Origin: Oceanococcaceae bacterium
Lineage (GTDB): Bacteria; Pseudomonadota; Gammaproteobacteria; Nevskiales; Oceanococcaceae
Reading direction: 5' to 3'
DNA: 37,469 nucleotides
Assembly (NCBI GenBank): GCA_041593295.1
Contig: JBFHON010000001.1
Span: forward strand, 1 to 37,469
Both the position numbers and the translations under genes were made by a program. The notes under the pieces were generated by a model, which worked only from the letters and a program-made list of their open reading frames with translations, did no database searches and was not told the origin of the DNA. Shown here one piece after another: positions 20,553 to 37,469 of this stretch (positions within the stretch are counted from its first letter, which is position 1; each line of letters begins with the position of its first letter).

Positions 20553-22439
20553 ATGAAAAAGCTGATTGTGGCTGCGATTGCAGCGTTTCCCCTGTGGGTA
20601 CATGCGGACGCCACGAGTGAGGCCGCGCATGTGCAGTTCGAGCAGATCCTGGGCCAGGTTGGCGGAACACAGCAGGCCTTTTCGCCGCGGATCAATCGGC
20701 TGATCGGCTGGTCCGGTTCTGGCATGCGGCAATTGTCAGCTGCGGAAAAGCTGGACCAACTGATTGCGGCGCACTGGGACTGGAGTCAGTTGATTTCACC
20801 GGAAAATGCGACCTTTATCGGCTATGCCGGGCAGAACGGGCGCTGGTCCGATCTGTCGCTGGAGAACCTGCGCCGGACCGAGGCGCTGGAAAGCCAGTTC
20901 CTGCAGGTTCTGCAGTCGATTGATGAATCTCAGCTCAGCCGTGACCAGCGGCTCAATCTGCTTCTTCTGCGTCAGCAAACCGCACATGACGTTGCCGGTC
21001 ACGCCTTCCCCGATGAGCTGATGCCGGTCAATCAGATGTTTGGCCTCCAGACCTGGGTCGCCTCTGTGCTGGGCGCTCAGCCGCTGTTCACTGCACAGGA
21101 CCGCGCGGATTTCATGGCCCGGTTGCAGGGTATTCCCGCGCTGTTGACGCAAATGAAAGAATTGCTGCAACGGGGCCTGGAAGCCGGCGTGACACCTCCG
21201 CGCATCACGCTGGCCAAGGTGCCGCAACAGTTCCTGGAACTGGCGCCGGAGGACGGGCGAAAATCGCCGCTGTTGCAATCATTCGCCCGCTTGCCGGCCG
21301 GTATCAGCGACGCTGATCGCGCGGCTTTTGAATCGCGCGCCCTGAAGTTGTACGCCGAGGAAGTGCGGCCAGCCGTACTCGCCGCCTATCTCTACGTGCG
21401 CGACGAGTATCTGCCCAAATCCGTGCGTGCCACCGGGCTGTCGAACCTGCCTGATGGCAAGGCCTGGTACGCCCACGAAGCGCGCGGCTACACAACCACC
21501 GATATGACCCCGAAGGAAATCCATGAAGTGGGTCTGGCCGAGGTCAAGCGCATTCGGGGGGAAATCGAGGCGTTGATGGCCGAGGTTGGCTTCAAGGGGA
21601 CCATTCCGGCCTTTGTCGCCAAGACCAAAAAAGACCCCAAGTGGTACTACACCGACAAGGACGAGTTCGTGCGCGACTACCGCGCGCTGGGCAAACTGGT
21701 TGATGCACGGCTCCCGCGGGTATTCCGCACTTTTGCGGCGTTGCCGTATGGCATCGAGGAAGTGCCGGAGTTTCGTGCCAAGGGTTCGCCGGCGGCCTAC
21801 TACCTGCCGGGAAGCGCCGAATTTGGTCGCCCGGGGGTGTTTTACGTGAATACGGCCCGCATGGCGGACTCGCCCAGCTACGAAATGGAAGCGCTGCTGC
21901 TGCATGAAGCCGTTCCCGGTCACCATTTCCAGATCGCACTGGCACAGGAAATCCGCGACGTTCCGGAGTTCCGCAAGAACAGCTTCTTCACCGCCTACAT
22001 TGAGGGGTGGGGGCTGTACGCCGAGAGTCTCGGTCCGGAACTGGGTCTGTACAACGACCCCTATTCACGTTTCGGCGCACTGACATTCGAAATCTGGCGC
22101 GCCATTCGCCTGGTGGTCGACACCGGCATGCACACCATGGGCTGGTCGCGTGAGCAGGCGATTACCTATTTTGCCGAGAATACGGGGCGCTCGCGGGATC
22201 GCATTGAAGCCGAGGTGGACCGCTATCTGGTCATGCCCGGGCAGGCGCTGGCGTACAAGATCGGGCAGCTGAAAATCCGCGAACTGCGGACACGGGCCGA
22301 GGAAGCGCTGGGCGAAGGTTTCGATGTTCGCAGCTTCCACGATGTGGTGCTTGGCTCGGGCTCGGTGCCCCTGTCGGTGCTGGAGTCGCTGGTGGATGAA
22401 TGGAACGCACAAATGCAAACAACTGAGGTGGACGCATGA
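20553..22439 (+). CDS. DUF885 family protein (putative secreted metallopeptidase)
   Basis: 628 aa, signal peptide MKKLIVAAIAAFPLWVHA, and the family-typical HEAVPGHHFQ (HExxGH-like) motif near the C-terminal third. Its ATG directly abuts the marC stop. Confidence 0.8.
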   Translation: MKKLIVAAIAAFPLWVHADATSEAAHVQFEQILGQVGGTQQAFSPRINRLIGWSGSGMRQLSAAEKLDQLIAAHWDWSQLISPENATFIGYAGQNGRWSDLSLENLRRTEALESQFLQVLQSIDESQLSRDQRLNLLLLRQQTAHDVAGHAFPDELMPVNQMFGLQTWVASVLGAQPLFTAQDRADFMARLQGIPALLTQMKELLQRGLEAGVTPPRITLAKVPQQFLELAPEDGRKSPLLQSFARLPAGISDADRAAFESRALKLYAEEVRPAVLAAYLYVRDEYLPKSVRATGLSNLPDGKAWYAHEARGYTTTDMTPKEIHEVGLAEVKRIRGEIEALMAEVGFKGTIPAFVAKTKKDPKWYYTDKDEFVRDYRALGKLVDARLPRVFRTFAALPYGIEEVPEFRAKGSPAAYYLPGSAEFGRPGVFYVNTARMADSPSYEMEALLLHEAVPGHHFQIALAQEIRDVPEFRKNSFFTAYIEGWGLYAESLGPELGLYNDPYSRFGALTFEIWRAIRLVVDTGMHTMGWSREQAITYFAENTGRSRDRIEAEVDRYLVMPGQALAYKIGQLKIRELRTRAEEALGEGFDVRSFHDVVLGSGSVPLSVLESLVDEWNAQMQTTEVDA

Positions 22440-25911: not shown

Positions 25912-26892
25912 ATGAGTAATAACAATTTGCTTGAGGTGCACAACCTCAAGGTGCGCTTCGCCACGCAGGATGGTGAGGTCGAGGCGGTCAACGGGGTGAA
26001 CTTCTCGCTGGCGGCGGGGGACACACTGGGGATCGTCGGTGAGTCGGGGTCCGGCAAGAGCCAGACCGTGCTGTCGATCATGGGTCTGCTCGCCGGCAAC
26101 GGCAAGGCCACCGGCAAGGTGGTGCTGAACGGACGCGACCTGCTGACGATGAACACGCGCGAACTGAATGTGGTGCGCGGTTCGAACATCGGGATGATTT
26201 TTCAGGACCCGATGACGTCACTGAACCCCTATCTGCGGATATCCACGCAGCTGACCGAAAGCCTGATGATCCACCGGGGCATGAGCAAGAAGGAGGCGCT
26301 GGCCCGGGCGATCGAGGTGCTCGATGCCGTCCACATTCCCGATGCGCGCAACCGTGTGCACTATTACCCGCACGAGTTTTCCGGCGGCATGCGCCAGCGT
26401 GTGATGATCGCCATGGCGCTGATGTGCAAACCGGAACTGATCATTGCCGACGAGCCGACCACGGCGCTGGATGTGACCGTGCAGGCACAGATCCTGCGCT
26501 TGCTGGATGAGCTGAAGCGCGATTTCGGCGTCGCCATCATCCTGATTACGCATGACCTTGGCGTGGTTGCCGGCCTGTGCGACAACGTGATGGTGATGTA
26601 CGGCGGTCAGGTGATGGAAACTGCCAGCCTCAACGACATATTCAACAACCCGCGGCACCCCTACACCCGTGGCCTGCTGAAAAGCGTGCCCCGGCTGGAC
26701 GAGAACGAGCATGGCCGTCTGCTGACGATCCCCGGGAACCCGCCGGATTTGATGCACCTCCCGGCCGGTTGTCCCTTCAGCCCGCGCTGTGTGGATGCTA
26801 CGGAGCAGTGCCGGACCGAACGACCGCTGCTGCGCTACCAGGATGACGACAGCGCACGTGCCTGCCTGCGGCCCATCGAGGAACTGTCATGA
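25912..26892 (+). CDS. oppD: Oligopeptide ABC transporter ATP-binding protein
   Basis: Walker [13 protein letters not shown] signature FSGGMRQR, Walker [12 protein letters not shown], and the oligopeptide C-terminal extension. Confidence 0.93.
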
Positions 26893-28779: not shown

Positions 28780-29238
28780 ATGAATTTTCAACAGATCAGT
28801 GACGTCGTGAAATGGTCCGCCGATTTTCACGCCGAACTCGGCAGCGCATACACCCGGATGGTTGAAGTCACCGAAGTGCCGCGTGTGCGCGAGGTGCTGC
28901 GTTACCTCGCCACGCACGAGCAGGAAATTGAACGCGGCCTGCGTGGTCATCTGCAGCAGACCGAGCCGGGGTTGCTGGGCGGCTGGGTGCGCGGTGCACC
29001 GTCGTACGACAAGCTGCAGTCGTTGCAGAAATTGCGCAGCAGGATGGATGCGGAGACCGTCGATGGGGTGACGAGCCAGGCCGTCGATATTCACAAGGCG
29101 TTGCAGGACATGTACCAGGAACTGGCGGGCTATGCCGAACTGCCGGAAAGCCGTGAGTTGCTGAAAAACCTGCGTGACCATGAAGAGGCGGAAACCCGCC
29201 GCATGGTGCGGGATATCGGCTGGTACGAAAGTACCTGA
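28780..29238 (+). CDS. Hypothetical helical protein
   Basis: 152 aa, counted from MNFQQISD. This start is preceded by GAGGAG with a 6-nt spacer; the ORF-track start at 28756 lacks a Shine-Dalgarno sequence. Charged, predicted all-helical, with HEQE and DHEEAE patches. No family recognised. Confidence 0.55.
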   Translation: MNFQQISDVVKWSADFHAELGSAYTRMVEVTEVPRVREVLRYLATHEQEIERGLRGHLQQTEPGLLGGWVRGAPSYDKLQSLQKLRSRMDAETVDGVTSQAVDIHKALQDMYQELAGYAELPESRELLKNLRDHEEAETRRMVRDIGWYEST

Positions 29239-29350
29239 CGCTCGCAGGGTTCCGCACCGTGGGGCCCTGGCCGCCATCCAGGGCGGTGCCGGTCGGCGCC
29301 TTCTCTCTCCTTTTCAGACAGGTGGGCGCCCCAGGCTGTCGCTCAACCGC

Positions 29351-30391
29351 TCAGGTCAGGCTGCTGCGCAAACTGACGTCCAGCACGCCCGGAGGTGGTG
29401 GGGTGGCAGGGCGATCCTTGCTGCCCGGGTGCCAGTCCAGCGTGTCCAGCCATTGCCCCAGCGGCAAGGCACGCAGCTCGACCCGATCGCGGGCCTGCAG
29501 CCGCTTCGGCAGGAACAACCTGAAACCGCAGCGTGCAGGGAGGTTCAGGCCGGGTAACGGCGGCGGCGTCTCGCCGGTACAGCAGAACCCGGCATGTTCG
29601 CCATTGATCAGAACCTGCAGTGGCAGGTGTGGCGTCAAACCCGGGTTGAAGGCCACGCCTTCTACCTGCTGCGGGCCCAGACGGGTAATGGCGCCGTAGA
29701 TCCACTCCCCGGGTGGCCGCTGGGCAAGGAAGTCCAGACGGGCCTTGAGCGTACGGTTGGCCTGAATGAACAGGTCGTAATCCACCTTCTCGCGTTGCTT
29801 GCCAGCGGCTGGCAGCTGATATTTCTTCCGGTCGTAGCCGCGTTCCTTGTGTTCCTCGCGTTCCGGGTTGACGTTGAGCTGTTGTGGCTGCGCATCAATC
29901 GGGTACAGGGAGCGAAACAGTTCCAGGCTGTCTTCGTAGCGGTTGGTCACCCCGACGAACCCCAGCAGTTGGACAGGGATGCCGTTGAGCATGCGGGATT
30001 GCTGGCCCGTGCCTGAGGCGGACAGCGCGAACTCCTCCAGCGAGCCGGTATACCCCTGAACGCGTTTGCGATGCTCCCAGTGGGAAATCACCTGCTCATG
30101 GGGGTGGCGGACGAATACCGTCAGTTCCCAGGGGGCGAATTGCGCCGCGTAGCGACTGAGCTGGAAGTGTCCACACAGCACCTGCCAGTCACGCTGTGCA
30201 GCCGGTTGGGCCACACGACCCGCCAGATTCTCAGTGGTTGTCGGGCTGTCCGCACCATAATCGCAGAGCAGCGTGTTTTCCGGGAGTACCCGCTCCAGTT
30301 CCATGCGAAACGAGGTTCCGGCGGTTTTCGGGATGTGACAGAAAAGTAGCGCCATGGCGATCAGGGAAAGGTGGGGTGCGGCGGGCGTCAC
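29351..30391 (-). CDS. Sulfotransferase family protein with unknown C-terminal extension
   Basis: The N-terminal CHIPKTAGTSF matches the HIPKTGGTS PAPS 5'-phosphosulfate-binding loop of bacterial sulfotransferase family 2. About 120 C-terminal residues are unassigned. The start is either GTG 30391 or ATG 30355 (MALLFCHIPK). Confidence 0.65.
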   Translation of the reverse strand: MTPAAPHLSLIAMALLFCHIPKTAGTSFRMELERVLPENTLLCDYGADSPTTTENLAGRVAQPAAQRDWQVLCGHFQLSRYAAQFAPWELTVFVRHPHEQVISHWEHRKRVQGYTGSLEEFALSASGTGQQSRMLNGIPVQLLGFVGVTNRYEDSLELFRSLYPIDAQPQQLNVNPEREEHKERGYDRKKYQLPAAGKQREKVDYDLFIQANRTLKARLDFLAQRPPGEWIYGAITRLGPQQVEGVAFNPGLTPHLPLQVLINGEHAGFCCTGETPPPLPGLNLPARCGFRLFLPKRLQARDRVELRALPLGQWLDTLDWHPGSKDRPATPPPPGVLDVSLRSSLT

Positions 30392-30475
30392 AACTGGCAG
30401 ACATGGACAAGCAACCCGGCGGCAAGCCGCAGAATTCTAGGAGGTTTGTCATGCCTTCGCCGGCCCGCGGAAGGT

Positions 30476-31486
30476 TCAGAAGAAAAACTCGTCGGCAAGC
30501 ATCGGGGCTGGCGGCGGTTTGGGGACGCTGTCCTGGGGAACAAAATCGGGGACTGTCAGCCGGATGCGCTCGATCGGGTCGGTGGGAATCTGCGGCAGTT
30601 TGGCCAGGCGTTCCAGTTCCGGGCCGATGCCGCGACCGTTTGCGAGCTGAATGGACAGGCCGGGACGGGCATTGAGCTCGAGCACAAGCGGGCCCAGGTT
30701 GCGGTCCAGCACGACGTCGACACCCAGGTAACCCAGTGGGGCCAGTTCGTAGCAGCGGGTTGCCAGTTCGAGCAGGCGTGGCCAGTGCGGAATCTGGAAC
30801 TGGGCCAGCGCCGTACCGGTGTCCGGGTGGTGCGTGGTCGGCGCGTTATGGTGAACGCCGGAGATGGTCCGGCCGCTGCGCAGGTCGATCCCGGCCCCGA
30901 CCGCGCCCTGGTGCAGGTTGGCCTTGCCATCGGATTCGCGCGTGGGGAGCCGTACCATGGCGCAGACGGGCACGCCCCGAAACACCAGCGTGCGGATGTC
31001 CGGCACGCCGTGGTGAGTGATCGGCGCAAATACCGGGTCGAAATCGACGCAGTATTCGATCATGGCCTCGTCCGGCAGCCCGCCCAGGCTGAACATGCCG
31101 GAGAGGATGTTGGACACATGGTGCTGCAGCACCTCGTGGCTCAGCGGTTCGCCGCTGGCGCGCAGGTAGTCCTTGCCCTGCCGGCCGCGGACCACGATGA
31201 TGCCGTCGCCGCCGGCGCCATGAGCCGGTTTGATGACGAAGTTCTGGTGCGCAGCAAGGGTTTGCTCCAGCGCATTCAGGTCGTGCTGGATGCGCGCCAC
31301 GCCGTACAGTTCGGGTACGGCGATGCCTGCGGAATGGGCCAGCTCCTTGGTGCACAGCTTGTTGTCCACCAGCGGGTACAGGCGGCGGGCATTGAACTTG
31401 GCGATGTAGTCGCCGTTGCGACCGTTCATGCCGATGATGCCGGCCTTGCGCAGGCGCCGCGAGGGCAGTGCGTCGAGCCAGCTCAT
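30476..31486 (-). CDS. RimK-related ATP-grasp ligase (alpha-L-glutamate ligase-like protein)
   Basis: 336 aa. ATP-grasp features FVIKPAHGAGGDGI, ESDGKANLHQGAVG, and GVDVVLDRNLGPLVLELNARPG (Mg-binding E-x-N). The N-terminus GIIGMNGRNGDYI is typical of the TIGR02291-like subfamily. Confidence 0.85.
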   Translation of the reverse strand: MSWLDALPSRRLRKAGIIGMNGRNGDYIAKFNARRLYPLVDNKLCTKELAHSAGIAVPELYGVARIQHDLNALEQTLAAHQNFVIKPAHGAGGDGIIVVRGRQGKDYLRASGEPLSHEVLQHHVSNILSGMFSLGGLPDEAMIEYCVDFDPVFAPITHHGVPDIRTLVFRGVPVCAMVRLPTRESDGKANLHQGAVGAGIDLRSGRTISGVHHNAPTTHHPDTGTALAQFQIPHWPRLLELATRCYELAPLGYLGVDVVLDRNLGPLVLELNARPGLSIQLANGRGIGPELERLAKLPQIPTDPIERIRLTVPDFVPQDSVPKPPPAPMLADEFFF

Positions 31487-33003
31487 GCTTTCTTGTCGGG
31501 CAGCCAGACGCTGCGAAAGCGCCAGTATTCGCTGAGCCGGTAGCCGGTGTAGCGGCCCAGCAGCAGCGTGACTGCGAGCAGGACCAGCAGGCTTTCGGGG
31601 AACAGGCTCACCAGGTGCTGCAGCCAGGCATTGCTCATGACGATAAAGGCCAGGGCCGCGACCGCGAGGCTGCCCAGCCCCTGCGTGATGGCATCCCGCG
31701 AGCCGTGCTCCTCCCAGACGATCGACATGCGTTCAATCGTCATGGCGAGAATCACCATCGGGAACAGGGCAATTGACAGCCCGCGCTCGAAGCCCAGCCG
31801 GTGGCTGGCGATGCTCAGCAGCAACATCAGGATGATGACCATGATCAGCACTGCGGCCAGACGCGGCACCAGCAACAGCTTCAGGTACTCGAGCCCGAAG
31901 CGCAGGGCGAGACCAATGGCCACCACCGAGGAGAACAGCACGCAGCCCCACAGCAACTCGGTTTCGCGGAAGGCCAGGGAAATCAGCACGGGCATGAAGG
32001 TGCCGAAGGTGCGAATGCCCACGACATTCCGCAGCAACACCACCAGCAGGGCACCGAACGGCACCATCAGCAGGATGGTGTAGGTGTTCTGGACATGCAG
32101 GGGCAGCCCCAGCAACGAGACCTGGGCCAGCGGCTGGTGCAGGTCGCGGGCCAGTTCAACCGTGCGCGATTCGGTGCGACGGACCGAGAAGCGCAAATCC
32201 ACATCGCTGCCGCCGTCCACGCTCAGAGTGCGGCCCGGGTGGGTCTGCCAGGTCAGGAAATTCTCCGGCCGGCCCTGTTCGCCGGTGACCGGGTTGAACG
32301 GAATCCACTGCTGCTCATTGTGGACCTCCAGCCAGGGCTCCAGCCGTGCATTGAGCAGGCCGTGCCGCAGCACCAGGCCATAGACCACGCGGGCCGGTAT
32401 GCGGGCGCCGGCGAGGATGTAGGCCACCTGCTGTGCGCGCGCAGCCGGGGTGCGGGCCTCTTCCCGCAGCAATTTGACCGCCGGGTCGCTGCTGTTCTGC
32501 CGCAGCTCCAGGATCAGCTGTCGGGCAAAGGACGCGATATCTGCGGAATGCGTACGTACATCCTGCAACAGGGATTGAATGGCTGGCGCATACAGTTCGG
32601 GGTAGTCCGGTACGGCCGGGTAGCCGGGGAAAGCGTCCGGTCGCTCGCGGGGTGTCTCGCGGGGGTTGACGGTCAGCCGGTAGTACAGCGCCTGCGGGCC
32701 AAAGGCCGAGCGGGTGGACAGCAGCAATGTGCGCTGACCGTCGATCCGGTCCTCGGCCATGCCGAAGTTGCGAACCACGAAGTCCTCGTCGAGGACATCA
32801 AACCCGGGCGGTTTTTCCGGCAGCGCCATCTGCAGCTTGACCCGTCCTTCGCCGCGAAAGCTGGCGCGGGCTTCGATGGTCCACACCGAAGAGCGTGCGT
32901 CCGGCTCCAGCGGCAGGCCCAGGCGGGTCACCTTGTAGTACATCACGCCCAGCGCGACAGCACAGAGCAGGAAGGCGAGGGCGCCGACGGGGGATATTTT
33001 CAC
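31483..33003 (-). CDS. 7TM membrane protein with N-terminal inactive transglutaminase-like domain
   Basis: One N-terminal TM segment and an extracytoplasmic domain of about 280 aa with a TGase-like core. The catalytic positions are substituted (no Cys before RIPARVVYG; EPWLEV instead of H-x-W-x-E; WIPFNP instead of FDP). About seven C-terminal TM segments follow. GTG 33003 overlaps the upstream stop as GTGA; an alternative TTG start lies at 33042. Confidence 0.8.
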   Translation of the reverse strand: MKISPVGALAFLLCAVALGVMYYKVTRLGLPLEPDARSSVWTIEARASFRGEGRVKLQMALPEKPPGFDVLDEDFVVRNFGMAEDRIDGQRTLLLSTRSAFGPQALYYRLTVNPRETPRERPDAFPGYPAVPDYPELYAPAIQSLLQDVRTHSADIASFARQLILELRQNSSDPAVKLLREEARTPAARAQQVAYILAGARIPARVVYGLVLRHGLLNARLEPWLEVHNEQQWIPFNPVTGEQGRPENFLTWQTHPGRTLSVDGGSDVDLRFSVRRTESRTVELARDLHQPLAQVSLLGLPLHVQNTYTILLMVPFGALLVVLLRNVVGIRTFGTFMPVLISLAFRETELLWGCVLFSSVVAIGLALRFGLEYLKLLLVPRLAAVLIMVIILMLLLSIASHRLGFERGLSIALFPMVILAMTIERMSIVWEEHGSRDAITQGLGSLAVAALAFIVMSNAWLQHLVSLFPESLLVLLAVTLLLGRYTGYRLSEYWRFRSVWLPDKKA

Positions 33004-33545
33004 GGGGCGCCTGCAGATGCGTCGGAGAGTGAAGCCGGGCAACGGGCTTCGCGGGTAAAGGTCCTGCCCGCATCAACCGGTGCAAACTTTTCCAGGAAGC
33101 GGCGTCCCAGCAGGACGGGGTAGATGAAGCGACTGCGGTCCACCAGCGTGAACTCGGTGACATGGCGCTCCCCGCCGAGGCAGAAGGCCAATTCCACGAC
33201 CGGTCGGCGGTCGTACTCGCCTTCGTGTTCCTTGATTCGCACGCCACGAATGCGTGGCCGTTCCAGTATCAGGCGATGCTTCTTGCCGTTGGCATCTTCC
33301 AGCTCAACCCGGAAACGCACCCATTTCTGGCCATCGCGGGTGAAGGTTTCGATTCTGTCGGCCTGCAGCGAGGAGGTGCGGGCGCCGGTGTCCAGCTTGG
33401 CCTTGACCGGGATGGTGTCCGGCCCGAGCAGGATCTTTTCGACCCACCCCACGGCCGCGGTCGGCTTGGCGGTCAGTGCGGTCGGAAGAAGCAGGAGGAA
33501 TATGAGCAGTGCCGGCAGGTGCCGGCGTGCAGGAGTCGCAGCCAT
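33000..33545 (-). CDS. Secreted retropepsin-like protease (DUF785 / annotated ATP-dependent zinc protease family)
   Basis: 181 aa. Signal peptide LLIFLLLLPTALTA, aspartyl-protease-like AKLDTGARTSSL motif, and an AAGGA Shine-Dalgarno sequence. Confidence 0.8.
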   Translation of the reverse strand: MAATPARRHLPALLIFLLLLPTALTAKPTAAVGWVEKILLGPDTIPVKAKLDTGARTSSLQADRIETFTRDGQKWVRFRVELEDANGKKHRLILERPRIRGVRIKEHEGEYDRRPVVELAFCLGGERHVTEFTLVDRSRFIYPVLLGRRFLEKFAPVDAGRTFTREARCPASLSDASAGAP

Positions 33546-33671
33546 TGTGTCCTTGGTCCATCACCAGGTCAGTGAGTCTTGCTGAACGTTCTGACGTCCG
33601 GGAATGGTAAAGCATTCACCGGCGCAGGCTGCGGTTTGGCCGGGTGGGCGGCGTTTTCCGCGGACGCAAGT

Positions 33672-33707
33672 GCCGGCAGGGCTGCCGCAAAGCATGCCCC
33701 TGCCGGC
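33672..33707 (-). other. 10-bp GC-rich stem-loop between the Big_2 lipoprotein gene and the DUF785 gene
   Basis: GCCGGCAGGG-16 nt-CCCTGCCGGC, with no U-tract. Confidence 0.5.
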
Positions 33708-33723
33708 CGCGTGCGGTGCGGTC

Positions 33724-35025
33724 TCAGGGTTGGTAGGGGTACAGGGCGGCCTCGAATTCCAGGGCGCCGAGATCATCGTTGTCGCTGCTGCTCGCCCGAA
33801 CCGTGATGTTCGCGCGCTCATTGCTGGAACTGACCAGGCCGGCATTCGAATAGCTGCTCCCGACCGAGCCACCGCTACCGTCACTGACGATCCAGTTCAG
33901 GTGCCGGGTGATGGCACGTTCGCTGCCATCTTCAAAGGTGCCACTGACCTCGAGCGCATAGGTGTCGGGGTAGGTGATGCTGAGCGCATCGGTTGCCGAA
34001 TCCATGGCGACGAGTTCGAGCGCGGCCAGTTCCCAGGATTTGCTGCGAAACACCTCGTCCCGTCGTTCCAGGCTGATATCCAGGTACACCGGGTCCGCGT
34101 CGTCCAGTTCCTCGTCATCCGTTGCCAGCGGCTCCACCACCAGTGCATATTCGCGCGTGTCGGTCTCGATGATGGTCAGTGCCTGCAGTTGCGCCGCATC
34201 GGAAACTTCCACCGCGATCTGGTTGGTGAGATTCTGTTCGCTGCTGCCATCGGCGAACTGCGCCCACAACTGCACGGTTTCGCTGTAGCCCAGCGGAAGC
34301 ACGCCGTTGTCCGTGGCCTCATAGCGCAGGGCAAAGCCCGTGGGTTCCTCGATGGTGAGCTCCTGCGTGGCATAGCGACCGCATTCCGGCAGCTGGGCCA
34401 CCACCCGTACCGGTGTCTGCGCATCGGCGGAGCCGGCGACCAAGCGTCCGCTGTAGTCCACATCCATGTAGGCATTGTTGGCTGCGGGCTCGACCTCCCA
34501 GCTGACCAGGTCCGTGAGGTAGTAGGTGTCCGGGTTACCTTCCACTTCACCGACGAGGGCGAAATTCTGACGTGTCCGGGCTGCCACATGGGCCAGTTCG
34601 GGCTCGATGCGGATGTCACTCAGCGGCAGAACTTCCACCACGATGCTGGCCGTGAAGTCCAGATACTCTGCGCGAACGGTGGCAGTGCCGGGGCGTCGAG
34701 CGATGACGACCCCCGCGCCATAGACCGTGCGCCCATCGGTGCCTTCCGGGATCAGGTCGCCATTGCTGACGCTCACCACACCGGGGTCGCTGGAATCCCA
34801 GCTGACACGCTCGGAGAAATCCCCGCTGCTGGAATCATCGCCGTCGAAGGTCACGATGGCATTCAGGTTGAAGATCGAACACTCGCTCACTTCGGCCACG
34901 CTGCTGTCGTCGCTGTAGGTGACCGACAGCTTGCTCGGGTAGGTGCCTTCGCCGATGCTGGAACACGCGCTCAGCAGCACGGCCCCCAAAGCCAGCATGG
35001 CCGCAGGTTGTGGCAGCGGAAACAT
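33724..35025 (-). CDS. Acidic lipoprotein with Big_2-like bacterial Ig domains
   Basis: Starts at MFPLPQPAAMLALGAVLLSAC-SS (lipobox LSAC). At least three Big_2-like signatures are visible (VSWDSSDPGVVSVSNGDLIP, LVSWEVEPAANNAYMDVDYSGRLVA, LNWIVSDGSGGSVGSSYSNAGLVSS). Confidence 0.7.
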   Translation of the reverse strand: MFPLPQPAAMLALGAVLLSACSSIGEGTYPSKLSVTYSDDSSVAEVSECSIFNLNAIVTFDGDDSSSGDFSERVSWDSSDPGVVSVSNGDLIPEGTDGRTVYGAGVVIARRPGTATVRAEYLDFTASIVVEVLPLSDIRIEPELAHVAARTRQNFALVGEVEGNPDTYYLTDLVSWEVEPAANNAYMDVDYSGRLVAGSADAQTPVRVVAQLPECGRYATQELTIEEPTGFALRYEATDNGVLPLGYSETVQLWAQFADGSSEQNLTNQIAVEVSDAAQLQALTIIETDTREYALVVEPLATDDEELDDADPVYLDISLERRDEVFRSKSWELAALELVAMDSATDALSITYPDTYALEVSGTFEDGSERAITRHLNWIVSDGSGGSVGSSYSNAGLVSSSNERANITVRASSSDNDDLGALEFEAALYPYQP

Positions 35026-35044
35026 GGTTCGACGCTCCGCCTGC

Positions 35045-36244
35045 TTAACCGGGGAAGAACAGGACACGGTGGTTATTGCGGTCGGTGACATACAGCACGC
35101 CGTCGCGCAGCGACAGCCCGGTGGGCGAGTTCAGGGTCTGTTCCGAGGCCTCATCGTCGGAGTCCCCGTCCAGATCGATGTCGTTTTTCAGCAGGCTGCT
35201 GAAATCGTCCTGGCCGTAAACGTCGATGGCCAGGGGCTGGTTGGCGATCGGGAACGAGTCGAATTCCAGGACCCGGTTGTTACCGGCATCGGCGACATAG
35301 AAGCGGGTGCCATCCGAGGTGATGCCAAACGGGGTGCGCAGTTGCGACTGGCTGACTCCGGCGCTGCTGCGCGAGAAATCCGACTGGCCAATGACATAGG
35401 TCGCTTCTTCCCCGGCGGAGCGGGGCAGCTGCTGCCAGTAGAGCACGCGGTTGTTGCCGCTGTCGGCGACCAGCAGGCGAAAGCCGTCGCTCCACAGCCC
35501 GGCAGGATTGGTCAGGCCTGCCTCTTCGTCATCGGCTTCGACGGTGTCGAAGTCCGGCTGCCCGACAACGACGTCGGCGGGCGCACCATTGCTGTCAGGC
35601 AGGGTGTTCCAGACCAGCACACGGTGGTTGCGCTGGTCGGACACCAGCAGGCGCCCGGCGGCGATCTCGGCCCAGACCGGGTAGGACATCCGGCTGGCAC
35701 CGCTGCCCGGTTCGGCACTGGTGAAATCATCCTGGCCTACGACCACGTCGGGCGGCGTGTTGCTGGAGGGCAGGCTGTTCCAGATCAGCACGCGGTTGTT
35801 GCCCGCATCGGTGACGGCCAGCTTGCCATCGCCAATGGTTACGTGTGTGGGCAGTGCCAGCGCCGCGCCGGAGGTGCCCGCAGCAGAGCTGCTGAAATCA
35901 GCCTGGCCGAGCACGAAGTCCGGAGCCTGGCTCAGCGTATCCGGAATCCGGTTCCAGCCGAGCACCCGGTTGTTGCTGAAGTCGGCGACATAAAACAGGT
36001 TGCCGTCGGTGGCGATGCCACCCTGGGGCTGACCCAGGCCCAGGGCGTCCGTGCTGCCGCCGCGGTTGGAGTACAGCTCGGCGAAATCTGCCTGGCCGAC
36101 GACCATGAAGGCCTCCGGGCGTTCGTCATCGTCGTCCGTCGAGGACGAACTTGTCGTGTCGCAGGCGCTGAGCAGCGCGAGCGGCAGGAACAGAGAGGCG
36201 AAGACCGGTACGCGTGCACGGCCAAATACAGACTGCAGATCCAT
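35045..36244 (-). CDS. NHL-repeat six-bladed beta-propeller lipoprotein
   Basis: Starts at MDLQSVF...LALLSAC-D (lipobox, Asp at +2), followed by an SSSSTDDDDE linker. Six repeats of about 55-60 aa each carry GQ(A/D/S/P)DF ... (V/Y)(A/T/S)D..N(N/H)RVL.(W/F). GGGAG Shine-Dalgarno sequence upstream. Confidence 0.75.
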   Translation of the reverse strand: MDLQSVFGRARVPVFASLFLPLALLSACDTTSSSSTDDDDERPEAFMVVGQADFAELYSNRGGSTDALGLGQPQGGIATDGNLFYVADFSNNRVLGWNRIPDTLSQAPDFVLGQADFSSSAAGTSGAALALPTHVTIGDGKLAVTDAGNNRVLIWNSLPSSNTPPDVVVGQDDFTSAEPGSGASRMSYPVWAEIAAGRLLVSDQRNHRVLVWNTLPDSNGAPADVVVGQPDFDTVEADDEEAGLTNPAGLWSDGFRLLVADSGNNRVLYWQQLPRSAGEEATYVIGQSDFSRSSAGVSQSQLRTPFGITSDGTRFYVADAGNNRVLEFDSFPIANQPLAIDVYGQDDFSSLLKNDIDLDGDSDDEASEQTLNSPTGLSLRDGVLYVTDRNNHRVLFFPG

Positions 36245-36381
36245 GTGGTTACTCCCAGATTGACGTCGAACCGCCCGGACCCGGACGGCAATGTGGGGTT
36301 CAACGCGGGATTCGCCCGATTCCGTCGCACGAATTTTCCGGGGCAGGCTGAGCAGGGAACAGGCCGGTTGCAGTCTGCTTC

Positions 36382-36387
36382 TATAAT
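36382..36387 (+). promoter_or_regulatory. Consensus -10 hexamer TATAAT, 6 nt upstream of the ATG at 36394
   Basis: Exact TATAAT, but no convincing -35 at 16-18 nt spacing. The position implies a leaderless or near-leaderless transcript if it is functional. Confidence 0.35.
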
Positions 36388-36393
36388 CGCCGG

Positions 36394-37469
36394 ATGCTGA
36401 ACCGCCCCAATGTGATGCACGGCTGGCGCCTGGCGCTTGCTGTCCCGATGCTCGTGCTCGCTGGAGCCGCCGTGGCCCTGGATGAGAGCGACCTGGAAAT
36501 CGACACCGCAAAGGCGGTTCCTCCGTCGTCGGCCCCGGCCCCTGAACCCTCGCTCCCGATCATGGTTTCCCCCGTGCCGGTGCCTACGCCCCTGCCGGGC
36601 CCGGAGCCGTTGCAGATTCTGGAAGGGGTTGTCGCGCCCGGCGAGGTCCGCCGGCTGGCCTGGCGCACCGGCTTTGGCTACGGGCTGGTCGACGAGCCGG
36701 TACCGGTGATCGTCGCGCATGGTGCCAAGCCGGGGCCCACCCTGTGTCTGACGGCTGCGGTCCACGGGGATGAACTGAACGGGATCGAGATCGTGCGACG
36801 GGTCCTGGCAGGGCTCGAGGCCTCCCGGTTGCGGGGTACGGTGATTGGCGTGCCGATCGTGAACGTGCACGGTTTTCAGCGCCGCAGCCGTTACATGCCG
36901 GATCGCCGTGACCTGAACCGCTACTTCCCTGGTGACCCCAAAGGTTCACTGGCTTCGCGGGTGGCGCACAGTTTCTTCACCCGTATCATCCAGCGCTGCG
37001 ATTACCTGGTGGACCTGCACACCGGCTCCTTCCAGCGCACCAACCTGCCGCAACTGCGGGCCGACCTGCGCAATCACGAAGTGGTCGATATCACGCGACT
37101 GTTCGGTGGAGTGACCGTACTGCACAGTCCCCCCGCGGCCGGGACCTTGCGCAAGGTGGCCACCGCGGCGGGGATCCCTACCGTCACCTTCGAGGTCGGG
37201 GAGCCGAACCGCCTGCAGGCGCAGGATGTGGGCCGCGCGGTCAGCGGGGTGCAGTCCCTGCTGGCCGGGCTGGAGATGTTTGGCAGTGAGGCGCGCACGG
37301 ACCGTCGGCAGCCGGTCTTTTACGAGTCCCGCTGGGTGCGGGCGGACCGTGGCGGCATCCTGTTCAGTACCGTCAAGGTCGGGCAGCAGGTCAAGGTGGG
37401 CGAGGTGCTGGGCACCGTCACCGACCCGCTGACCAATGTCTATATCGAAGTGCGGGCGCCGATCGCCGG
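36394..37469 (+). CDS. Secreted succinylglutamate desuccinylase/aspartoacylase (AstE/AspA, M14-like) family deacylase, 3'-truncated by the window end
   Basis: Not in the supplied ORF track because it is open-ended. My frame-1 translation from 36394 has no stop through 37469 (358 full codons). Signal peptide (WRLALAVPMLVLAGAAVA), Pro-rich linker (PPSSAPAPEPSLPIMVSPVPVPTPLPGPEP), then family motifs AAVHGDELNG, DLNRYFPG and VDLHTG. Confidence 0.8.
   Translation, partial: MLNRPNVMHGWRLALAVPMLVLAGAAVALDESDLEIDTAKAVPPSSAPAPEPSLPIMVSPVPVPTPLPGPEPLQILEGVVAPGEVRRLAWRTGFGYGLVDEPVPVIVAHGAKPGPTLCLTAAVHGDELNGIEIVRRVLAGLEASRLRGTVIGVPIVNVHGFQRRSRYMPDRRDLNRYFPGDPKGSLASRVAHSFFTRIIQRCDYLVDLHTGSFQRTNLPQLRADLRNHEVVDITRLFGGVTVLHSPPAAGTLRKVATAAGIPTVTFEVGEPNRLQAQDVGRAVSGVQSLLAGLEMFGSEARTDRRQPVFYESRWVRADRGGILFSTVKVGQQVKVGEVLGTVTDPLTNVYIEVRAPIA

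Follow-up and report, generated by a model that had tools for sequence, protein, structure and literature searches.

We describe a string of three genes in a 37,469-nt stretch of an Oceanococcaceae genome (assembly GCA_041593295.1, contig JBFHON010000001.1); this whole stretch is termed the window in what follows, and positions are counted from its first letter. The genes encode a putatively secreted aspartic peptidase, a predicted inner-membrane protein with a transglutaminase-like ectodomain, and an ATP-grasp ligase related to RimK. The best overall explanation, which we consider very probable, is that the string is the rloABC operon of a marine gammaproteobacterial metagenome-assembled genome. 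The genes, their overlaps, the domains and diagnostic codons of RloB and the neighbouring genes are collected in Table 1.

Table 1. Features of the rloABC locus and its surroundings in window positions. RloB residue numbers, here and in the text, are those of the 506-aa, GTG-started protein (aa, amino acids; TM, transmembrane)
Feature	Positions	Strand	Description and basis
rloA	33545..33000	minus	181 aa; signal peptide, DTGA active site; putative secreted retropepsin-like aspartic peptidase
rloB	33003..31483	minus	506 aa from GTG; predicted inner-membrane protein: TM1, periplasmic pseudo-transglutaminase, 7 TM helices
rloC	31486..30476	minus	336 aa; predicted cytoplasmic RimK-related ATP-grasp ligase
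GTGA overlap	33000..33003	minus	rloB start GTG on rloA stop TGA; direct reading
ATGA overlap	31483..31486	minus	rloC start ATG on rloB stop TGA; direct reading
RloB beta-sandwich and transglutaminase-like domain	32104..32919	minus	Residues 29-300, Cys-free; Foldseek, hhalign
Pro186 codon (ccg)	32448-32446	minus	Nucleophile Cys column; hhalign
Glu222 codon (gag)	32340-32338	minus	Catalytic His column; hhalign
Asn237 codon (aac)	32295-32293	minus	Catalytic Asp column; hhalign
RloB 7TM bundle	31555..32103	minus	Residues 301-483; near-invariant R346/E347, E424/R425, E470; conservation
RloB cytoplasmic tail	31513..31554	minus	RYTGYRLSEYWRFR, residues 484-497; candidate RloC docking site; conservation 0.92
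Exported AstE/AspA-family deacylase	36394..37467, open at window end	plus	PF24827, E 9e-43
Sulfotransferase-like gene	29351-30391	minus	Weak PF03567, E 0.003
Two lipoprotein genes upstream of the trio	33724-35091, 35045-36511	minus	One NHL-repeat, one immunoglobulin (Ig)-like; same strand as trio

The Pfam family matches that identify the trio lie far above the cut-offs. RloA belongs to PF05618 (E 3.6e-37) and RloC to PF14397 (E 3.8e-91), while RloB carries PF14400 (residues 23-182, E 6e-39) followed by PF14402 (residues 259-499, E 2e-97). These are the same three families, in the same order and on the same strand, as in the rloABC operon of Pseudomonas aeruginosa, and each gene has the sequence features of RloA, RloB or RloC. 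Among NCBIfam models, RloC is the sole member of the trio to pass a cut-off, scoring 436 bits on TIGR02291 ('alpha-L-glutamate ligase-like protein') against 314. RloA3, the best RloA-type model, matches over its full length at 164 bits, with an equivalog cut-off of 210; the RloB model, an exception-type model with a cut-off of 900, likewise matches over its full length, at 403 bits.

Iyer et al. are said to have made the first prediction of an Rlo-type system, in 2009. The operon was named in P. aeruginosa by Lormand et al. (2025, mBio; PMC12239564), where rloB and rloC are the PA14 loci PA14_41710 and PA14_41730. Structures of RloA have been solved, and the enzyme cuts substrates that contain 8 or 10 glutamates in a row (8E/10E), the specificity of Pseudomonas RloA being for runs of at least eight alpha-glutamates (PMC12239564). 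According to the published topology prediction, RloB sits in the inner membrane with its dead transglutaminase domain facing the periplasm, and RloC is cytosolic (PMC12239564). Mutants are affected in cell shape, in ampicillin and beta-lactam sensitivity and in osmotic lysis, and a role of Rlo in hypo-osmotic tolerance is known for P. aeruginosa (PMC12239564). A triple rloA protease mutant, for which hypo-osmotic conditions are lethal, is rescued when rloB or rloC is deleted, and no genome-encoded periplasmic polyglutamate (polyE) protein was found (PMC12239564).

Much of what the present locus encodes is thus already described. Pfam calls PF14400 an 'inactive transglutaminase fused to 7 TM helices', and the pseudo-enzyme ectodomain, its placement between TM1 and the 7-helix bundle, the exported protease and the cytoplasmic ligase are all to be found in Pfam (PF14400/PF14402) and in PMC12239564; gene overlaps, individual triad residues and a deacylase neighbour are not discussed in the latter. 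With the P. aeruginosa operon our locus shares the signal-peptide DTG retropepsin, the inactive transglutaminase joined to a 7TM bundle, the cytoplasmic ATP-grasp protein and the topology model. It differs in that its sequences are distant (RloB 403/900 bits, RloA3 164/210), that starts overlap the preceding stops, and that upstream of it there are a gene for an exported AstE/AspA-like protein and two for lipoproteins.

The two junctions can be read directly from the minus strand. At the first, the GTG of rloB occupies 33003-33001 and the TGA of rloA 33002-33000; at the second, the ATG of rloC occupies 31486-31484 and the TGA of rloB 31485-31483. Both overlaps reported in a first-pass annotation of this DNA, GTGA and ATGA, are therefore exact. 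In the open reading frame (ORF) listing the longest rloB frame opens further upstream, at TTG 33042, and would encode 519 aa. One could accordingly suppose that rloB starts at this TTG or at an internal codon, that the genes are translated independently and that the overlaps are incidental; judged by eye, the Shine-Dalgarno-like sequences that precede the two internal starts are weak, and rloA and rloB are separated by a gap in about half of the related loci in which they are neighbours (see below). We hold this to be very improbable. GTG is well supported as the rloB start, because a gene-called database protein of 506 aa is 100% identical to the GTG-started RloB, and because homologue N-termini, the RloB profile and the related loci agree with it. 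The 25 homologue N-termini shown in a 60-sequence alignment begin with MKxxxV in the V1-K2 column, bar one with a longer N-terminal extension, and it is these N-termini that rule out TTG 33042 as the start. Position 11 of the NCBIfam RloB profile falls on residue 22 of the longer frame, so that the profile begins about two residues before GTG and the start lies within about two residues of it. In a set of 80 related loci, one per species, the start codon closest to the aligned RloB N-terminus is mostly at offset 0.

The same 80 loci separate what is general at these junctions from what is local. rloC lies directly downstream of rloB in every one of them. The rloB-rloC junction is at -4 in 32 and at -1 in 13, which makes an overlap in 45/80 and argues further against an incidental arrangement; it measures at most 18 nt in 73/80. 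rloA lies directly upstream of rloB in 61 loci; the two genes overlap in 29 of these (28 of them at -4) and are 11-99 nt apart in the remaining 32. Close linkage of rloB to rloC is conserved across the system; the overlap of rloA with rloB is a local detail. The overlap geometry behind the earlier description of the trio as translationally coupled stands; the rloA-rloB overlap, present in 29/61 loci, is not conserved.

Among the overlaps in bacterial operons, those of four bases form the most frequent class. They are routine in this genome as well: two further ATGA overlaps of long co-directional ORFs occur in the window, both on the plus strand (22436-22439 and 26889-26892) and each preceded by a GAGG Shine-Dalgarno-like sequence. 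At the rlo locus such overlaps of 4 nt would keep RloB and RloC made together, as ordinary operon economy rather than through a special device. A promoter and terminator scan of 29200-37000 gave counts at the level of shuffled sequence.

The ectodomain of RloB has the fold of a transglutaminase and none of its catalytic residues. An AlphaFold2 (AF2) model of RloB, built on a 60-sequence alignment, has a mean confidence (pLDDT) of 80 and a predicted template-modelling score (pTM) of 0.65; it consists of an N-terminal helix (3-28), a beta-sandwich (39-114), a helical segment and core strands (139-278) and a helical bundle. A Foldseek search with this model finds PDB 3ISR, a putative transglutaminase-like cysteine protease, with E 2e-8 and probability 1.0 over about 280 columns (TM-score 0.55, target-normalised). 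By the model, then, a papain-like transglutaminase core fold is present in the ectodomain. At sequence level the likeness is fainter: Pfam Transglut_core (PF01841) matches residues 169-238 weakly, with E 0.055 and 14 bits against a cut-off of 23, and a homologue 54% identical to RloB passes the cut-off at 26 bits.

Aligning the RloB family by hhalign to the transglutaminase cores of the same genome, two of which have the full triad (GFCEHYA...HAWAEV...VDP and GSCRDSA...HAWCEV...LDP), gives a probability of 78% and E 1.9e-5 over 66 columns. Catalytic Cys is paired with Pro186, His with Glu222 and Asp with Asn237, and alignment to active transglutaminases thereby bears out the loss of the triad proposed in the first-pass annotation. 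Its Asn at the Asp position was right. Its Pro at the His position was one residue off, the residue in question being Glu222 and not Pro223. It was also correct that the nucleophile region lacks Cys, although the string quoted for it was misplaced, the Cys column (Pro186) sitting four residues upstream. An intact Cys-His-Asp triad elsewhere in the ectodomain is excluded, because residues 29-300 hold no cysteine.

We followed the three columns through two homologue sets, one of 60 close relatives (50-90% identity) and one of 138 diverse cluster representatives (31-49% identity). Cys is absent from residues 29-300 in 59/60 close homologues and in 117/138 diverse members, and the ectodomains of the 138 representatives have no conserved Cys column. 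At the Pro186 column the family has P27, D12, E6, A5 and S5, and no Cys. His occurs at the aligned column (222) in 5/138 and at the next column (223) in 23/138. The residue-237 column is Asp in 72/138, Asn in 32/138 and Ser in 15/138. Loss of the triad is graded across the family, the catalytic Cys being gone throughout; the nucleophile was probably the first to be lost.

Compared with active PF01841 enzymes (3ISR, and a 685-aa PF01841 membrane protein of the same genome that we take to resemble TgpA), RloB keeps the beta-sandwich and papain-like core and the framework motifs GIPAR, W.EV and W..DP. It differs in the replacement of Cys (G-x-C), His (H-x-W-x-E) and Asp (W-x-x-x-D-P), in having no Cys in the domain at all, and in the fused 7TM bundle. 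As a side observation, contig C109 of this genome encodes, in a 273-aa frame on the minus strand, another Transglut_core protein (78 bits) that keeps Cys (GVCRDYA) and Asp (FDP); its His motif reads DFAAWFEAY, with Ala at the canonical His position, and it could be another transglutaminase-like protein in partial decay.

Hydropathy and loop charges of RloB fit an N-in, C-in arrangement: six Lys and Arg residues lie in the C-terminal segment, and basic loops follow TM2 and TM4. This would place the ectodomain in the periplasm, as published. Together with the loss of the triad, this topology logic supports the earlier reading of RloB as a pseudo-enzyme domain on the periplasmic side fused to seven TM helices.

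Constraint on RloB is strongest not on the ectodomain, where mean column conservation is 0.52-0.64, but on the 7TM bundle (0.78) and above all on the cytoplasmic tail (0.92). The most conserved segment of the protein is the tail pattern RYTGYRLxExWRFR; G483, R484, Y485, G487, Y488, R489, E492, R495 and F496 are invariant here. Charged residues in or beside the membrane helices are near-invariant as well (R346/E347, E424/R425 and E470). The conservation of the bundle and of these intramembrane charges suggests a working membrane domain rather than a passive anchor, and the tail would be an interaction surface, a candidate docking site for RloC. Within the ectodomain the best-conserved part is the surroundings of the former active site (AGARIPAR, PWLEVH and W..F[ND]P).

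On the periplasmic side, RloA aligns with PDB 9g59 and 9g58 (E 1e-22 and 2e-21), with KLDTGA, RPV and DRS in register; it keeps DTGA and the basic positions of K-x-D, RPV and DRS that match the solved homologues. Its N-terminus is signal-like, with a 12-aa hydropathy maximum of 2.78 followed by ALTA-KP, and the same holds for 58 of 61 RloA homologues encoded beside rloB. RloC has no hydrophobic segment: its N-terminal maximum is -0.07 and its 19-aa maximum over the whole protein 1.11. Hydropathy therefore agrees with the annotation of a signal peptide on the protease and none on the ligase. Aligned to the RimK structures 5zct and 4iwx, RloC shows the motifs DIR, NLHxG and GVDxxLxxxGPLxLExNxxPGL, and the Mg/ATP motifs of the ATP-grasp family are retained. 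Its C-terminus has no conserved docking motif, tails varying in length and sequence.

An ATP-grasp ligase paired with a polyglutamate-cutting PF05618 aspartic peptidase is also the composition of RimK-RimB, from which Rlo was probably derived (PMC12239564). RimK and RimB differ from Rlo in being both cytoplasmic and without a membrane partner. Rlo-bearing organisms usually also carry Rim (PMC12239564). In this genome a different contig (C69; L002:517-1962, minus strand) encodes a 481-aa protein in which a RimB-type retropepsin domain with no signal peptide is fused to a complete RimK; the latter scores 380 bits against the equivalog cut-off of 331. RloC falls far short on the RimK models: it scores 21 bits against 331 on PRK10446 and 42 against 143 on TIGR00768. 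Since the genome has its own RimB-RimK fusion, Rlo is separate from the ribosomal S6 system.

Among the neighbours, only the AstE/AspA-like gene recurs. Its ORF has a signal-like, hydrophobic N-terminal segment and a Pro-rich linker and is divergent from the string formed by the lipoprotein and rlo genes. Homologues lie within 3 kb of rloB in 17/80 loci and take three placements (upstream and divergent, upstream and co-directional, or downstream of rloC), and where the start can be read, a hydrophobic stretch is present at the N-terminus in most. The varied placement suggests a functional linkage, and the deacylase may be an optional fourth Rlo component. The sulfotransferase, the Ig-like lipoprotein, the NHL protein and a 160-aa ORF have no homologue near rloB in any of the 80 related loci; the sulfotransferase-like gene and the lipoproteins look like lineage-specific genes rather than parts of the system.

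For the system as a whole we tentatively favour, at a little short of even chances, a mechanism in which RloC makes, RloB exports or presents and RloA trims. On the cytoplasmic face RloC, probably docked on the tail and loops of RloB, would assemble an oligomer or conjugate rich in glutamate. The 7TM bundle would pass this product to the periplasm or present it there, and the dead transglutaminase cleft would act as a binding module for the product instead of a catalyst. RloA would trim the product in the periplasm, joined in some species by the exported AstE/AspA-type deacylase, and untrimmed product would be harmful in dilute medium. The demonstrated part of this scheme is the published cleavage of polyE by RloA in vitro; the later steps we infer.

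A bolder form of the proposal is that RloB is the founding member of a class of exporters or presentation platforms for ligase-made poly-alpha-glutamate, or for a glutamylated carrier, which would be held on a fossil transglutaminase cleft and sized by a retropepsin with or without a deacylase. This is doubtful as it stands; if true, Gram-negative bacteria would gain a tunable periplasmic polyanion that sets the osmotic balance of the envelope. There is a known analogue in the poly-gamma-glutamate synthases PgsBCA/CapBCA with their depolymerase PgdS/CapD: an ATP-dependent amide ligase works on the inner side, and the polymer is extruded by membrane subunits and cut by an enzyme outside the cell. 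The proposed logic of making, extruding and cutting would be the same, polymer export in Rlo being hypothetical. The families are unrelated (PgsB is of Mur-ligase type, not ATP-grasp), the linkage is gamma and not alpha, and PgsBCA/CapBCA belong mainly to Gram-positives.

A different view of the same parts is transmembrane signalling: a peptide or cell-wall fragment in the periplasm would be sensed by the dead domain, the 7TM bundle would relay this inward and turn RloC on or off, and RloA would destroy the ligand. The conserved surroundings of the former active site, best preserved within the ectodomain, would suit such a sensor, the conserved cytoplasmic tail could contact RloC, and the wall is suggested by the phenotypes in cell shape and beta-lactam sensitivity. 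Even the published epistasis (PMC12239564) also fits runaway RloC activity when the ligand stays. It is the specificity of RloA that tells against this view, long polyglutamate being what it cuts: with no genome-encoded periplasmic polyE protein found, the ligand would still need a ligase and a passage across the membrane. Nor do Pfam and Foldseek find a known signalling fold or output domain. We therefore rate signalling as unlikely. The first-pass annotation had preferred transmembrane coupling to a simple pathway; its partners on opposite sides of the membrane hold good, and its preference does not, as signalling and a membrane-crossing pathway cannot be told apart by sequence. The only functional data, in which loss of rloB or rloC rescues the triple rloA mutant, are fitted most simply by a pathway, with RloC and RloB making or exposing what RloA removes.

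Less probable again is modification of an envelope precursor. Here a precursor, lipid-linked or of peptidoglycan, would receive glutamate (or a different amino acid) from RloC, be flipped or handed over by RloB and be edited in the periplasm by RloA and the deacylase. Pfam terms PF14397 'sugar-transfer associated', the mutants are affected in cell shape, ampicillin sensitivity and osmotic lysis, and an rloB-type gene affects vesicle production in Shewanella according to the literature. Against it, no glycosyltransferase, flippase or Mur-type gene is conserved beside the trio, and the local sulfotransferase and two lipoproteins are, as noted above, without homologue in the 80 related loci. We regard this as an improbable explanation.

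That the cytoplasmic C-terminus of RloB might itself be the acceptor glutamylated by RloC, by analogy with RimK, which extends the C-terminal Glu-Glu of ribosomal protein S6 (PMC12239564), is hardly credible: RloB ends in ...WLPDKKA, its last nine residues are the least conserved (0.24), homologue tails end in KP, QP, KR, KG, QT, KS, DA and so on, such non-Glu, poorly conserved tails ruling out an acidic C-terminal acceptor for this clade, and a cytoplasmic tail is out of reach of exported RloA.

Several points weigh against the identification as rloABC and against the scheme of making, exporting and trimming built on it. The NCBIfam scores of RloA and RloB are under the strict cut-offs, and the two proteins are therefore family-level relatives and not proven functional equivalents of the Pseudomonas proteins. 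No RloC product is known in any organism, and no transport activity is known for RloB. A model of the 7TM bundle alone (pLDDT 79, pTM 0.73) finds no relative among solved PDB folds (Foldseek best E 3, probability 0.23), and a PDB sequence search with the RloB family profile gave chance matches only (E about 2); structure prediction thus matched the ectodomain to 3ISR and the bundle to nothing solved, and no transporter or receptor class can be assigned to the latter. Translational coupling we infer from the geometry of the overlaps only. rloA is absent from the operon in 19/80 species, and trimming by RloA may therefore not be obligatory; five of these genomes were searched, and PF05618 was found elsewhere in two and not found in three, their completeness not being established. 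Some lineages may have an RloBC that works with no RloA of its own.

The locus itself is ordinary, a further species copy of a system that is in Pfam and NCBIfam and was studied genetically in 2025. Three features seen here bear on what RloC makes and what RloB does with it, and could guide experiments in laboratory Pseudomonas strains: the constraint that is strongest on the membrane bundle and cytoplasmic tail and not on the ectodomain; the linkage of rloB and rloC, inseparable in 80/80 loci, with rloA dispensable in position; and the exported AstE/AspA-family deacylase as a recurrent fourth neighbour.

The 19 loci of the set with no adjacent rloA are L013, L015, L041, L044, L049, L062, L064, L065, L067, L073, L075, L076, L079, L080 and L082-L086. 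The ORFs upstream of rloB at these loci have varied N-termini, and several begin with a GxGxxG-type dinucleotide-binding motif.

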